Sequence record: PV683292.1
DNA length: 64,000 bases
Direction: 5' to 3' (one strand)
Source of the DNA: Klebsiella phage HMGUkp2
The stretch's first letter is position 1; each line of letters starts with the position of its first letter. The notes below the pieces were generated by a model. That model worked only from the letters and a program-made list of their open reading frames with translations. It was not told the DNA's origin and ran no database searches. Made by a program: the position numbers and the translations under genes. Shown piece by piece: positions 321 through 13,625 of the stretch.

Positions 321-2572
321 ACGTAGTAAAATCCAGCGGCTGCAGCCAAGTTTTCACTCCAAATAAAATTATCCAAGTTCTTACTTGGGCTACAGCTAAT
401 ACCTCAGTAGACCCGTACGAATTGTACGAGCGAATTAAGCCTTATATTGTTGACAACATGAGTACTCGCGATATCCAAATCGCTTGTGTTAAAGTTGCTG
501 CTAACAGTATCTCTATTAATGAACCGGACTATCAATATGTTGCTTCTAATCTGGCTATGTTTGCGCTCCGCAAAGATGTATACGGTCAGTTCGAGCCTCC
601 CGCGTTCATTGATCATATCACTCGTGTTGTTAACGAAGGTCTATATGACACGGAAATCTTGTCTAAGTACTCAGCAGAAGAGATCGGTTATCTTGATACC
701 ATTATCGACCACAACCGAGATTTCGAACTGACTTATGCAGGGACTATGCAGCTTAAAGAGAAATATCTCGTTAAGAACCGTAGTACAGGTGTAATCTATG
801 AAACGCCGCAGTTTGCCTTTATGCTGATCGGTATGTGTCTGCACCAAGATGAACCTACTGATCGTTTGCTGCACGTTGTTCGTTTCTACCATGCAGTAAG
901 TAAACGCCAGATCTCTTTGCCAACTCCGATTATGGCTGGTGTTCGTACTCCGACACGGCAGTTTAGTTCTTGCGTGGTTATTGAAGCAGGCGATTCTTTA
1001 GATAGCATTAATGAAGCCGCTAACTCGATCATCAAGTATATTTCTAAACGTGCCGGTATTGGAATCAATGGTGGCATGATTCGTGCTGAAGGTTCTAAGA
1101 TCGGCGCAGGCGAAGTCAAGCATACTGGTGTTATTCCATTCTGGAAACACTTCCAGACTGCAGTGAAATCCTGTTCTCAGGGTGGCGTTCGTGGTGGCGC
1201 GGCTACTATGTACTATCCGATGTGGCACTTAGAAGTTGAAAACCTACTTGTTCTGAAGAACAATAAAGGTATCGATGAGAACCGCATTCGTCATATGGAC
1301 TACGGCCTTCAGATCGGTGACCTGATGATTGAACGCCTTCTGAATGATGATTACATTACTTTGTTCAGTCCAGATATTGCAAACGGTGAACTGTACACTT
1401 CTTATTTCGGCGACCCAGAAAAATTCAAACACCTGTACGAGTCATTAGAAAAGAACCCAGCGGTTCGTAAGAAACGCATCAAGGCTCTTGAACTGTGGGA
1501 ACTGTTCTTTACAGAACGTGCTGGTACAGCAAGGATCTATCCGTTCTTTAACGATAACGTTAATAAACACGGTCCGTTTATTCCTGAGATTGCTCCTGTT
1601 AAGCAGAGCAACCTTTGTTGTGAAATTGCATTGCCTACTAAGGACGTTGGTGGCGATGATCCGGAAGTAGCTCTCTGTACTCTGGCCGCATTTGTATTAG
1701 ATAACTTTGATTATCAAGACCAAGATGAAGTGAATACTCTAGCTGAAATCATGGTTCGTGCACTTGACAATCTTTTAGATTACCAGAGTTATCCTGTTCA
1801 TCAGGCTCTGAAAGCTAAAAAGCGCCGTGCATTAGGTATTGGTGTAACGAACTATGCCGGGTTCCTTGCTTCTAACTTTGCTACTTATGATGATGCTAAT
1901 GATTTAACTCATGAACTATTTGAACGGCTTCAATTCGGACTTATTACAGCATCAGTTAAACTGGCCAAAGAAAAAGGTCGCTGTGATTATTTCGAAGAAA
2001 CTCGCTGGTCCCGTGGTGAACTGCCGATTGACTGGTACAACAAACGCGTTGACACCGTTGTGGCGCCGAACTATGTTTGTGACTGGGCGTCGTTGCGGGA
2101 AGACTTGGTTAAGTACGGTATTCGTAACAGCACCCTTTCTGCATTAATGCCATGCGAATCATCTAGCCAGGTATCCAACTCTACTAACGGTATTGAGCCT
2201 CCGCGCGGCCCGGTAAGTGTTAAAGAATCTAAAGAAGGTTCATTTAACCAGGTCGTGCCGAATATCGAACACAACATCGATTTGTACGATTATCTGTGGC
2301 GCATGACCAAACGTGGTATGAGAGGTTACTTGACACAAGCGGCTATTATGCAGAAGTTTGTTTGTCAAAGTATTTCTACCAACTTTAGTTACGACCCGGC
2401 GGTGTTCCCTAAAGGCAAGGTTCCTATGTCTGTGATGATCCGTGATATGTTGTATTTTTGGTCTCTTGGCGGTAAGACTGCTTATTACCATAATACTCGT
2501 GATGGGTCCGGTACAGATGATTATGAAATTGAACAGCCTTCAGCAGAAGAATGTTCGTCCTGTAAGTTGTAG
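317..2572 (+). CDS. nrdA: aerobic ribonucleoside-diphosphate reductase large subunit
   Basis: 751 aa; N-terminus and overall size match T4/E. coli NrdA; followed by nrdB as in T4. Confidence 0.95.
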   Translation: MNVVKSSGCSQVFTPNKIIQVLTWATANTSVDPYELYERIKPYIVDNMSTRDIQIACVKVAANSISINEPDYQYVASNLAMFALRKDVYGQFEPPAFIDHITRVVNEGLYDTEILSKYSAEEIGYLDTIIDHNRDFELTYAGTMQLKEKYLVKNRSTGVIYETPQFAFMLIGMCLHQDEPTDRLLHVVRFYHAVSKRQISLPTPIMAGVRTPTRQFSSCVVIEAGDSLDSINEAANSIIKYISKRAGIGINGGMIRAEGSKIGAGEVKHTGVIPFWKHFQTAVKSCSQGGVRGGAATMYYPMWHLEVENLLVLKNNKGIDENRIRHMDYGLQIGDLMIERLLNDDYITLFSPDIANGELYTSYFGDPEKFKHLYESLEKNPAVRKKRIKALELWELFFTERAGTARIYPFFNDNVNKHGPFIPEIAPVKQSNLCCEIALPTKDVGGDDPEVALCTLAAFVLDNFDYQDQDEVNTLAEIMVRALDNLLDYQSYPVHQALKAKKRRALGIGVTNYAGFLASNFATYDDANDLTHELFERLQFGLITASVKLAKEKGRCDYFEETRWSRGELPIDWYNKRVDTVVAPNYVCDWASLREDLVKYGIRNSTLSALMPCESSSQVSNSTNGIEPPRGPVSVKESKEGSFNQVVPNIEHNIDLYDYLWRMTKRGMRGYLTQAAIMQKFVCQSISTNFSYDPAVFPKGKVPMSVMIRDMLYFWSLGGKTAYYHNTRDGSGTDDYEIEQPSAEECSSCKL

Positions 2573-11886: not shown

Positions 11887-12216
11887 ATGACTGATTTACC
11901 AATTCGTGCTCTTGGTGAGTATGTTATTTTAGTGTCTGAACCTGCCCAGGCTGGTGAGCCAGAAGTTTCTGCTGGCGGCATTATCATTGAACAACGCCGC
12001 TCTCAAGGCGAAGTTCCTGAACTGTGTGAAATCTATTCTATCGGTGAAGATGTTCCTAAAGGTTTCGTTGAAGTTGGCGATCTGACTCCAACCCCTTTAG
12101 GCAGCATCAAACATGTGACTCATCCTTTGGTTGCGGCTGGTATAGCTAAAGCTAAAGATATTAAGCAGAAATTCGTCACTGTACATTATAAAAATTTGAC
12201 GTGTGTTTACAAGTGA
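11887..12216 (+). CDS. 31: head assembly co-chaperonin (GroES analogue)
   Basis: 109 aa; near-identical core to T4 gp31 ([21 protein letters not shown]...G.II...R.QGEVPELC......G.DVP.GF.EVGDLT). Confidence 0.9.
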
Positions 12217-12221
12217 TATAA
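12214..12221 (+). promoter_or_regulatory. late promoter TATAAATA upstream of rIII
   Basis: exact 8-mer; ~130 nt upstream of rIII start. Confidence 0.35.
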
Positions 12222-12284
12222 ATAAAAGTATGAAGTGATGTGAGAACTACCTCCAAAAAGGGCATGTCACATTAACTTCTATGC

Positions 12285-12332
12285 GGTGGAGATGCGTTAA
12301 GCCGAATGGGTCTTAAGGCTCCACCTTTTATT
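12285..12332 (+). terminator. hairpin (7-bp stem GGTGGAG/CTCCACC, 27-nt loop) followed by UUUUAUU between gene 31 and rIII
   Basis: seen in sequence; atypical long loop. Confidence 0.35.
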
Positions 12333-12353
12333 CACCTCACTTGAGGTTCTATA

Positions 12354-12602
12354 ATGAAAGATACTATCAAATTTGTACTTGACATCCAGCGTCAATCCTG
12401 GAATAACGGCCACGAGAACTACGGCGCCTCCATCGATGTAGAAGCAGCAATGCTTGATCTGCTCGGTTATTTCAAACATCTGAACCCAGCTCAGAAAGCT
12501 CTTGAAGCCGAACTAGCTGCTAAAGATGAACTGAAATATGCTAAGCCGCTGTGTGCTAAGGCTCATAAAGCTGTTCGCCACTTTGTGGTAACGCTGAAGT
12601 AA
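12354..12602 (+). CDS. rIII: lysis-inhibition accessory protein rIII-like (by size/synteny)
   Basis: 82 aa as T4 rIII; immediately downstream of gene 31 as in T4. Confidence 0.5.
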   Translation: MKDTIKFVLDIQRQSWNNGHENYGASIDVEAAMLDLLGYFKHLNPAQKALEAELAAKDELKYAKPLCAKAHKAVRHFVVTLK

Positions 12603-12941
12603 TTTGTACGCCCACCATGTGTACGCATGGGTAACGTATGATGTGGACGTTGTTGGTTATCCCCACGTAAAACATCCGAAACCAACGGTGATTTGCTACC
12701 AAAGTGCAGCTAGAAAATAAACGGCAAGTGCATGCTACCCCGAGGCGATGGCTAATCGGGAGTACGCCTCAAGGCCTATACATCCATCGGTGTATATCTT
12801 ATCCCCGATAAATCGGACCCGGAACCTTTAAGCTAACGGTGTGCAACAGATAAGAGTTTAAACGTACCCCTTTGAGGGCTTGCGGGAGCTACAACCGAAA
12901 GAACTGTCGAAAGAAGTTGAACCTCGGAAGAACGTGCTCCC
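12603..12941 (+). other. 340-bp GC-enriched noncoding region with multiple local hairpins (e.g. CGTTGGTT...AACCAACG, GAGGCG...CGCCTC, CCATG...CATGG); candidate structured RNA / leader
   Basis: no ORF with RBS on either strand; composition and hairpin density differ from surrounding AT-rich DNA. Confidence 0.3.
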
Positions 12942-12971
12942 ATGTATTTCTCCAAAATGGAAGACTTTATA

Positions 12972-13154
12972 ATGGCTAAACAAGCAAAAGCAAAAGCAAA
13001 AACTGCAGTAAAAGAAGTTGTTGGTACCTCTAAACGCGCTGGCTACAAGCGTGCGTCGAACAAGCGTATCAATCAGACGGTTGAGAAAATCATGCGTCGG
13101 GCTCGTGCGGTTCTTCGCGATGATGCTTCTCGTTTTGGTAAGCCGAAGGCATAA
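12972..13154 (+). CDS. very basic small protein (60 aa, K/R-rich), function unknown
   Basis: ATG at 12972 has a GGAAG SD 8 nt upstream; ORF-track start 12942 lacks SD; followed by a strong terminator at 13160-13185. Confidence 0.4.
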   Translation: MAKQAKAKAKTAVKEVVGTSKRAGYKRASNKRINQTVEKIMRRARAVLRDDASRFGKPKA

Positions 13155-13159
13155 GTTTA

Positions 13160-13187
13160 GGGACTCCTACGGGAGTCCCTTTTTTGT
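13160..13187 (+). terminator. intrinsic terminator GGGACUCC-UACG-GGAGUCCC + UUUUUUGUUUU
   Basis: 8-bp stem, tetraloop, 6-U tail. Confidence 0.8.
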
Positions 13188-13200
13188 TTTAGTAGAAGGT

Positions 13201-13245
13201 GTTTACATCAGCTTTAGGTTGTGGTATAGTACTCTTACACCAACA
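13201..13245 (+). promoter_or_regulatory. T4-type early promoter GTTTAC-N18-TATAGT followed by conserved leader CTCTTACACCAACAAACCGGAG
   Basis: seen in sequence; near-identical 27-nt block repeated at 14706-14732. Confidence 0.65.
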
Positions 13246-13259
13246 AACCGGAGAATAAA

Positions 13260-13625
13260 ATGAAAATCAATCTGAATGCTACTGTTAAGTGCAAAGACCA
13301 TGACGGCTATAAAGCCCAAGTAGTTCATGAAGCCCAGTGGATGCTTAGCAAAGAGCAATTCGAACTGGTTTACTGTATGACTCCTGAGGGCCCTTCAGAT
13401 GATTTCTCATGGAAAATTCGTTTGACTAATTTCTTCACCGGTGAAGAGTATGTTTTGAAAACCCTTGTTGTTGGTAAAATCATTTCCGAGACTTACGAAG
13501 ATGAAGACGGTTACTCAGAAGATGTAACGTACTACAAAAACGGCCGTCAAGTGGCTGATGACCTGATTGAAAAAATGAAAGCTAAAGGTCTTATTGATTT
13601 AACTCATTGGACCTTTATCGGTTAA
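13260..13625 (+). CDS. hypothetical early protein
   Basis: 121-aa ORF directly downstream of early promoter 13201 with gagga SD. Confidence 0.5.
   Translation: MKINLNATVKCKDHDGYKAQVVHEAQWMLSKEQFELVYCMTPEGPSDDFSWKIRLTNFFTGEEYVLKTLVVGKIISETYEDEDGYSEDVTYYKNGRQVADDLIEKMKAKGLIDLTHWTFIG

Follow-up and report, generated by a model that had tools for sequence, protein, structure and literature searches.

A covarying 145-nt RNA domain, carried as a cassette between genes rIII and 30.9 of T4-like phages, is an RNA family not catalogued in Rfam

Introduction

Klebsiella phage HMGUkp2 (accession no. PV683292.1) carries, between gene rIII and a gene for a 60-aa basic protein, a stretch without any credible open reading frame (ORF), which raises the question of what is maintained there if not a protein. 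We analyzed 64,000 nt of this genome (hereafter, the window), whose closest matches are Marfavirus genomes with ca. 95–98% identity. The gene order around the gap is cd, two small ORFs, gp31, rIII, the ORF-free stretch, the 60-aa basic ORF and a terminator; all relatives compared are annotated with this gene order, the small ORF being named gp30.9 in them, and the rIII label is given in all related records. A first-pass annotation, made from the letters of the sequence, took the interval for a single unit, GC-rich and dense in hairpins, that could be a structured non-coding RNA, a long regulatory 5′ leader or translational operator for the basic protein, or the relic of a lost gene. Our comparative analysis shows that the gap is instead a mosaic of separable RNA modules, and that 145 nt of it form the remarkable domain (hereafter, the core) that we describe here.

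Results

The rIII-30.9 gap contains a sharply bounded core conserved across genera

The gap extends over positions 12603–12971, that is, 369 nt to the ATG at 12972, or 339 nt if counted to an in-frame ATG at 12942, in agreement with the ca. 340 bp lacking a plausible ORF that had been noted; the ORFs found on either strand are mechanical only, of 25–41 aa. Its length had been considered unusual, but a gap of 155–416 nt is present in every T4-like phage examined (40 distinct loci; 244 nt in T4), and a long gap is the rule, not the exception, at the rIII locus of these phages. The GC content of the gap is modestly above that of its flanks (0.47 vs. about 0.37–0.45), as claimed, but coding parts elsewhere in the window reach 0.50. 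Likewise, the inverted repeats are partly real but not beyond what is expected thermodynamically by chance, with minimum free energy (MFE) z-scores against dinucleotide shuffles of −0.32 for the + strand and −1.06 for the − strand of the whole gap. Because the folding energies match those of shuffled sequences and the GC content is as in some coding parts, these two cues establish nothing, and single-sequence z-scores are unable to carry the case for a structured RNA.

A blastn comparison with the gap as query matched 415 phage records. The gap is 97–99% identical in Jiaodavirus phages, though rIII is only about 71% identical there, and a 135-nt core is ca. 94% identical in T4-like phages of Escherichia, Shigella, and Yersinia. 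When the gaps were aligned, a core with sharp limits stood out, nearly unchanged from genus to genus, and its flanks diverged at once; T4 lacks it. The identity of the core to that of the window is 83–99% in 10 of 11 phages, the exception being EcS1 with 71%, whereas gp31 and rIII are only 57–76% identical in the same comparison; in phage Moon, for instance, the core is 95% identical vs. 65 and 63% for the two flanking genes.

The core folds around a four-way junction and contains a kissing loop

The fold of the core (Table 1) was deduced from an alignment (A1) of 23 non-redundant copies, made with MAFFT without structural fitting and covering at least 11 named genera: Marfavirus, Jiaodavirus, Dhakavirus, Gaprivervirus, Mosigvirus, Moonvirus, Kanagawavirus, Karamvirus, Kagamiyamavirus, Roskildevirus, and Muldoonvirus. 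RNAalifold predicted 44 pairs from this alignment, 20 of them with compensatory double changes. An additional 6-bp helix was spotted by eye between the loops of P2a (CGAUGG) and P3 (CCAUCG), with the variants CUAUGG/CCAUAG, UGAUGG/CCAUCA, and CAAUGA/UCAUUG; this kissing helix is 100% paired in the alignment, with three covarying pairs. The combined structure comprises 45 pairs, with 98.8% of cells paired and compensatory changes in 21 of the 45. None of 500 shuffles was as good, a result that overstates the significance because the aligned sequences are phylogenetically related; firmer evidence comes from the number of distinct pair states and from sliding the structure by 1–3 columns, after which only 29–43% pairing and 1–7 compensatory pairs were left. 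Additionally, in an all-against-all mutual-information scan of 31 distinct core sequences, every top fully canonical pair fell inside the proposed helices. There are 18 G-U cells vs. zero A-C cells among the pairs and, therefore, the folded strand is that of the mRNA (+).

Helix P1, whose sequence varies between phages yet is always complementary, closes a perfect four-way junction of P1, P2, P3, and P4 with zero unpaired nucleotides. P2 leads through a conserved 8/6-nt internal loop to P2a, which is kissed by P3, while P4 leads to P5, usually capped by GAAA (a GNRA-type tetraloop), and to P6, with a conserved 15-nt loop, followed by an invariant GCAACA. Around 45 unpaired nucleotides are invariant, including CAAGUGCAUG, CCCGGA, and GCUAACGGUG-GCAACAGAU. 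All 31 distinct sequences keep the fold, the most divergent being that from EcS1. Extra pseudoknots between invariant blocks (e.g., UGCA 12729–12732 with UGCA 12842–12845) were also considered, and discarded because these blocks have few variable positions and no covariation.

Of the inverted repeats listed in the first-pass annotation, ATACA/TGTAT corresponds to helix P3 and CCGAT/ATCGG to helix P5, both with support from covariation. The pair GAGGCG/CGCCTC does exist in the sequence, but this helix is not favored, because P2a plus the kissing loop covary in its place. The repeat reported as 8 bp is GTTGGTT/AACCAAC, with 7 bp, and corresponds to stem S2 of a flanking module (module B; see below), where it has partial support.

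The core did not match any catalogued RNA family. Searches of the window with ARAGORN found no tRNA or tmRNA genes, and Rfam 15 at gathering thresholds gave zero matches; lowering the threshold to E ≤ 10 for positions 12100–13400 yielded three sub-threshold chance matches (Phe_leader on the terminator and two snoRNA models). The comparison with Rfam and with related phages that the first-pass annotation had proposed thus returned a covarying fold without a known family, and the structured-RNA option is strongly supported by this covariation, not by hairpin density or GC content. These results show that the fold of the core is kept by selection, with the mRNA strand as the functional strand, and that the core is an RNA family not catalogued in Rfam.

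The same data bear on whether the gap is a decayed pseudogene, or codes for the small proteins annotated in some GenBank records. Depositors did call small coding sequences (CDSs) in it (38 and 35 aa in Marfa; 34 aa in PhiKpNIH-6), and mechanical ORFs of 27–41 aa can be found. However, a stop-free frame spanning the gap occurs in none of the 40 distinct gaps, the longest frames having 39–77 codons with varying strand and frame; the core of alignment A1 carries indels of 1, 2, and 7 nt; and its substitutions are pairwise compensatory instead of codon-periodic. A coding origin, including the suggested relic of a lost gene, is therefore scarcely credible and, given the lack of a spanning frame and these indels, the annotated hypothetical proteins of 34–38 aa are almost certainly spurious. 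In the public records these proteins lie over module B and the core (e.g., 1971–2075 in locus L001 and 1829–2036 in L002). A leader peptide starting at the conserved AUGAUG at the beginning of module B was likewise rejected, since the frames that it opens have only 3–34 codons and end at stops that vary, and since Moon does not have it.

The core is gained and lost as a cassette at a fixed slot

The distribution of the core is patchy: it was present in 9 of 30 rIII loci from IMG/VR and, within the single genus Tequatrovirus, phages fPS-65 and SHFML-11 contain it whereas T4 does not. The gaps of T4 and fPS-65 are near-identical save for 153 nt inserted at GAATGT^GAATGATG; the insertion corresponds exactly to the domain closed by P1, and there is no target-site duplication at this junction. 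In other phages the same insertion point contains a different hairpin of ca. 50 nt, module G (Table 1), whose inner stem shows a compensatory variant (CAGA/TCTG vs. CAGC/GCTG). There are, therefore, three alleles at one slot: empty, module G, and the 145-nt core (the full domain, as in fPS-65 and JS98). We retrieved 732 records with a T4-type gap, in which, among the matches listed, spans of ca. 244, 289, or 397 bp correspond to the three alleles. The order of core and module B also differs by lineage: module B precedes the core in the window, but follows it in JS98, Moon, EcS1, and the T4 type. The leader thus has a fixed slot at which the core, as a clean cassette, is gained and lost.

Roughly 400 sequenced phages contain the core, and they infect Klebsiella, Escherichia, Shigella, Yersinia, Enterobacter, Serratia, Citrobacter, and Erwinia. 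It always lies upstream of 30.9 on the same strand, and it is also in the 3′ untranslated region (UTR) of rIII, with P1 starting ca. 5 nt past the rIII stop codon in Moon. Model R1 found a single copy of the core in the window (178 bits). Outside of these phages, a conserved 20-mer pattern of the core had no match in GTDB genomes, and blastn did not reveal homologs in Escherichia coli genomes and plasmids. All the matches confirmed with R1 in metagenomes and IMG/VR were T4-like contigs or short fragments; a metagenome scan for distant relatives retrieved close relatives only, and a second pattern scan of IMG/VR for distant members gave chance matches only, apart from known T4-like contigs.

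Such a clean insertion/deletion polymorphism between near-identical flanks could also be produced by an element acting as DNA, such as a recombination or homing target, a protein-binding site or a sequence akin to a miniature inverted-repeat transposable element (MITE), or by recent horizontal spread without any RNA function. In line with this, P1 could pass for a terminal inverted repeat (TIR), hairpin modules of intergenic regions recur at other places of these genomes, and mosaic exchange is evident, e.g., in KP179, where identity to the window is 99% for the core and 94.5% for 30.9 but 71% for rIII. Nevertheless, the sequence of P1 varies while remaining complementary, the opposite of what is expected from a TIR bound by a transposase; the T4/fPS-65 junction shows no target-site duplication; G-U pairs occur on the + strand only; eight internal helices, including a long-range loop-loop helix, covary, for which a single-stranded fold is the sole explanation; and the 31 distinct sequences, down to 71% identity to the window (EcS1), all retain the fold. 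We thus consider a DNA-level explanation very improbable. A group I intron or a MITE were discarded as identities for the core because it is too small, has no match in Rfam and no target-site duplication, and its putative TIRs are variable.

Modules flanking the core and the leader of 30.9

The remaining parts of the gap are separable from the core and from each other (Table 1). Module A was found in gaps from Marfavirus and Jiaodavirus, with a version in Cronus that is a perfect 11-bp hairpin and a different hairpin at the same position in PS2. Module B is present in 25 of 31 rIII loci, T4 included, which are essentially those with 30.9, and model R2 found a single copy of it in the window (72 bits). 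Its loops GGTTATCC and CGT(T/A)AAA are invariant, and the three outer pairs of its stem S1 are 100% paired in alignment A3 (n = 21), with the states UA/AU/GC and CG/GC/UA, whereas S2 is 71% paired, being convincing in many lineages and weak in T4-type sequences. Module F could be a small hairpin or, perhaps, a MotA-box-like promoter. Module C adjoins hairpin D in most gaps; in KMB17 and EcS1 there is a copy of it upstream of the core, while no second copy was found in the window. The position of module D always holds a hairpin, although with unrelated sequences (GGGAAC/GTTCCC, GAGAG/CTCTC, GGTGGAG/CTCCACC, or GCAGG/CCTGC). Finally, the small hairpin of module E is predicted to sequester the Shine-Dalgarno (SD) sequence GGAAGA (12959–12964), 7 nt before the ATG, and by eye it shows compensatory variants in Cronus (CCTC-tatt-GAGG), EcS1 (TCCAA-ga-TTGGA), and T4 (TTTTC...GAGAA). 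The leader or operator function envisaged in the first-pass annotation is therefore plausible for these flanking modules, in that B co-occurs with 30.9 and E would sequester the SD.

Module C plus the 5′ strand of D (GUACCCC...GGGAGCUAC, 12864–12892) resemble by eye the strands of P2a (CUACCCC...GGGAGUAC, 12735–12766), and in PS2 both change to CCUCU; this likeness may have arisen by partial duplication, or may offer P2a another strand to pair with. A further long stem-loop of ca. 95 nt, module H (AATCGAGGAGCCGTCGAACTGTC...GACAGTTTTACGGTGTACCTCTTGA), opens the T4-type gaps and does not occur in the window; it is found in T4 (locus L010, 3662–3755, minus strand), JS98, VR5, and RZ; its apical 8-bp hairpin, TAATGATT/AATCATTA, becomes ATCGATT/AATCGGT in locus L057.

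Table 1. Features of the rIII-30.9 locus, with positions in the window unless another locus is given
Feature	Position	Strand	Remarks
gp31	11887-12216		Gene upstream of rIII
rIII, lysis-inhibition accessory protein	12354-12602	+	PHROG 1457, E 8e-40; upstream gene of the transcription unit
Module A, variable hairpin region	12603-12635	+	CCATG/CATGG; direct repeat TGTACGC; precedes conserved GTATGATG
Module B, conserved hairpin or H-type pseudoknot	12636-12692	+	Alignment A3, 21 sequences
Module B, stem S1	12643-12646/12663-12666	+
Module B, stem S2	12652-12658/12680-12686	+
Module F plus AU-rich linker	12693-12717	+	TTTGCTACCAAAGTGCAGCTAGAAAA; kept in CIP9, VR5, RZ, and T4 at varying gap positions
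Core RNA domain, 145 nt	12718-12862	+	Covariation in alignment A1, 23 sequences; no Rfam match
Core, helix P1	12718-22/12856-60	+
Core, helix P2	12723-25/12774-76	+
Core, helix P2a	12734-42/12757-67	+
Core, kissing loop	12746-51/12784-89	+
Core, helix P3	12777-82/12791-96	+
Core, helix P4	12797-803/12849-55	+
Core, helix P5	12805-08/12813-16	+
Core, helix P6	12817-21/12837-42	+
Module C, small hairpin	12864-12883	+	GTACCCCTTTGAGGGCTTGC; adjoins hairpin D in most gaps, including T4
Module D, long hairpin	12884-12941	+	GGGAGC...GCTCCC; directly 5′ of the 30.9 ribosome-binding region; in MFE fold
Module E, small hairpin	12951-12964 (hairpin 12951-12961)	+	UCCA-AAA-UGGA; predicted fold
Homolog of T4 gp30.9, 60-aa basic protein	12972-13154	+	PHROG 1427 (function unknown), E 7e-31
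Intrinsic terminator	13159-13190	+	Stem 13159-13180, 9 bp with 6 GC pairs, then TTTTTTGTTTT; ends the rIII-30.9 unit
Module G, hairpin	L040, about 1875-1925		tactatcacgcgtcagaaaaaggttatctgtctaagccgtggttggta; also L047, L053, L055, and others (T4-type gaps)

In an alternative interpretation, the core would serve as the aptamer in a riboswitch of a new class, in which sensing of a metabolite or ion would control translation of 30.9 via hairpins D and E. Its complex junction fold, invariant unpaired nucleotides and kissing loop are typical of aptamers, its position is constantly 5′ of 30.9 on the same strand, a predicted SD-sequestering hairpin lies downstream, and the likeness by eye between module C plus the 5′ strand of D and the strands of P2a (UACCCC..GAGG, GGGAG.UAC) would allow alternative pairings. 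Thus, two of the generic features of riboswitches, a covarying aptamer-like fold and a consistent position in the 5′ UTR, are found here. In contrast, apart from this likeness we found no expression platform able to pair alternatively with the aptamer, the leader being unchanged with or without the core, and no conserved overlap of P1 or the aptamer with any expression platform. Additionally, the sequence right after P1 depends on the lineage, being module C in the window but module B in JS98 and the T4 type; core and ATG are separated by a variable distance of about 100–160 nt; and a different small hairpin is able to fill the same slot. Since the leaders of T4 and fPS-65 are near-identical without and with the core, the platform shows no co-adaptation to it. 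We therefore regard a riboswitch as doubtful.

It is unlikely that the core is a new self-cleaving ribozyme or an RNA-processing signal, which would split the rIII and 30.9 messages or release a stable RNA. Its perfect four-way junction, two arms of which have conserved internal loops, does recall the natural hairpin and twister-sister ribozymes, the occurrence of the core in intergenic RNA is patchy and cassette-like, and its AU-rich flanks would suit RNase E. Yet there was no match to Rfam ribozyme families even at E ≤ 10, the element is confined to a single locus, unlike the scattered occurrence of the small ribozymes known so far, 145 nt is large for a self-cleaver, and a cleavage site cannot be inferred from the sequence.

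Gene 30.9 and transcription of the interval

The small basic ORF proposed downstream of the gap is conserved and encodes a homolog of T4 gp30.9, with identities to the window protein that range from 60% (Cronus) through 86% (T4) to 93% (EcS1) and an invariant G-SKRAGYKR-SN-R block in the family; we found no match for it in Pfam or the Protein Data Bank (PDB). We found no evidence for the suggestion that it is an internal protein, and its binding to nucleic acids is a guess from charge alone. The synteny rIII, gap, 30.9, and terminator is kept in all loci. A start at 12972 fits the family, while the upstream in-frame ATG at 12942 is cut off by stops in PS2, SP1, and L017. That ATG, 30 nt upstream, is the start codon in some GenBank records (e.g., Marfa, 70 aa), and in PS2, SP1, and L017 it gives merely an 8-codon frame (MYFSEMED-stop or similar). 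The conservation of ATGTATTTCTCC..GGAAGA (region 12942–12971) is better explained by an SD-sequestering hairpin than by a start site.

The terminator recognized after the basic ORF is as described, with a stem followed by a run of T, and the same terminator is annotated in PhiKpNIH-6, Marfa, and fPS-65. It is followed at once, within 13159–13230, by an early-type promoter (TTTACA-17-TATAGT with TG), and fPS-65 is annotated alike. No sigma-70-like promoter was found within the gap and, because the sole terminator lies after 30.9 and is then followed by an early-type promoter, the whole interval would be inside the rIII-30.9 transcript.

The intergenic region between gp31 and rIII contains other structures. 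At 12285–12336 there is a long hairpin with a T-run (GGTGGAGATGCGTTAAGCC...GGCTCCACCTTTTATT) that shares ca. 85% identity with module D of the Serratia phages SP1 and Muldoon, the changes being compensatory; a hairpin of this type is located directly before the ribosome-binding site of 30.9, and not before rIII, in SP1 and Muldoon, and before rIII in Cronus, indicating that intergenic RNA hairpins are reused at different sites. A 19-nt inverted repeat (84% complementary; 12210–12343) surrounds most of this region and includes a late-promoter-like TATAAATA at 12222–12229; it could give different 5′ structures to early and late rIII transcripts.

Discussion

Our results are best accommodated if the interval is a structured intercistronic RNA of the rIII-30.9 transcript that includes an autonomous 145-nt domain of a new family, which we consider the probable explanation. 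Closed by P1 on a perfect four-way junction and held by the kissing of the P2a and P3 loops, the core would bind a specific partner, either a small molecule or a protein, or would be catalytic, as suggested by the complexity of its fold and its invariant unpaired nucleotides. Most likely it would act independently of the expression signals of 30.9, as a stable or processed RNA working in trans (e.g., a sponge or decoy) and not in the manner of a classical riboswitch, because it is closed on itself, can be placed before or after module B, and is dispensable in near-identical leaders. The sharing of one slot by the core and an unrelated hairpin also favors an autonomous RNA and, since the domain is closed on itself, its insertion keeps the two flanks spatially adjacent. 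Modules B, D, and E, always present with 30.9, would in turn constitute its translational leader or operator. By analogy with the pseudoknot operator of T4 gene 32, and as a hypothesis only, this operator could be bound by the basic gp30.9 itself.

Several observations weigh against this explanation. The stability of the core alone is unremarkable (MFE z-score of −1.58), the relatedness of the sequences inflates the shuffle controls, and part of the high identity of the core may come from recent recombination, as the pattern of KP179 suggests. The core shares its strand with 30.9 and always precedes it, an arrangement expected of a riboswitch aptamer, and we infer, rather than observe, the accumulation of a discrete core RNA and its role in trans. 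As for the operator, the pseudoknot of module B is provisional because S2 is poorly paired in T4-type sequences.

More tentatively, the core could represent a new class of ligand-binding or catalytic RNA moved as a swappable cassette, acting as a sponge or decoy for a host factor or immune signal, or as a self-cleaving ribozyme. It would then be the first functional complex-fold regulatory RNA of the T4 superfamily, and the rIII-30.9 leader a dedicated slot for exchangeable RNA modules, that is, nothing, a ca. 50-nt hairpin, or the 145-nt domain.

According to a 2010 review, no riboswitch or trans-acting regulatory RNA had been characterized from T4, and the genomes of its relatives were indicated as a possible source of candidates (Uzan and Miller, 2010; PMC3014915). 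The core is such a candidate, with the complexity of riboswitches or ribozymes and strong covariation. We found no description of it in literature searches on its sequence strings, on gp30.9 or rIII leader RNA, and on structured RNAs of T4-like phages. The family is new but of a general kind already familiar, that of orphan RNAs with a complex fold, and its cassette biology is unusual. Many of the phages bearing it are candidates for therapy, and it has so far been left unannotated or been mis-annotated as small hypothetical proteins. Shuffling among T4-like genomes thus extends beyond genes to intergenic RNA modules, and the natural alleles in near-identical backgrounds (empty, small hairpin, and full domain) make function directly testable.

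Comparison with known systems

The core shares with multi-helix riboswitch aptamers, such as those for lysine and purine and the four-way-junction yybP-ykoY Mn2+ and NiCo riboswitches, a junction closed by P1, covarying stems, invariant nucleotides in the junction and internal loops, a kissing loop between neighboring arms, and a location 5′ of an ORF with a sequestered SD. It differs from them in having no Rfam match and no expression platform coupled to P1, and in being optional in near-identical leaders.

As in the natural four-way-junction hairpin and twister-sister ribozymes, two arms with conserved internal loops emerge from a perfect junction and could dock. There is also, by eye, a local likeness between ACAGAUAAGAG of the core and the ribozyme string ACAGAGAAG. 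This look-alike string was rejected as evidence of a ribozyme because it is base-paired in the core, within the covarying P4, whereas it belongs to loop A in the hairpin ribozyme, and Rfam gave no match.

The T4 stable RNAs rnaC and rnaD (species 1 and 2; ca. 120–140 nt, role unknown) are, like the core, structured RNAs encoded by a phage. However, they are located in the tRNA cluster and have a tRNA-like 3′ end, while the core is inside an mRNA and absent from T4. Model R1, run with filters off on the T4 tRNA region, gave best scores under 9 bits and none on rnaC or rnaD, and homology to these RNAs was rejected.

With respect to the pseudoknot operator of T4 gene 32 (PMC3014915), module B is similarly pseudoknot-like, precedes by some tens of nucleotides the start codon for a protein that looks like a nucleic-acid-binding one, and occurs in T4-type phages always alongside its gene, here 30.9. 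Conversely, its sequence and gene are different and S2 is weak in the T4 type; in the leader of gene 32, moreover, nothing corresponds to the 145-nt core.

Lastly, PeSL elements, consisting of a stem-loop plus an early promoter, mediate gene shuffling in T4-type phages (Arbiol et al., 2010, PMC2839356; Comeau et al., 2014, PMC4122927). As with them, short conserved intergenic modules are reshuffled here between T4-like genomes, and the terminator plus early promoter at 13159–13230 fits this type of element. The core differs from PeSL in lacking a promoter, in the complexity of its tertiary fold, and in being the cargo itself.

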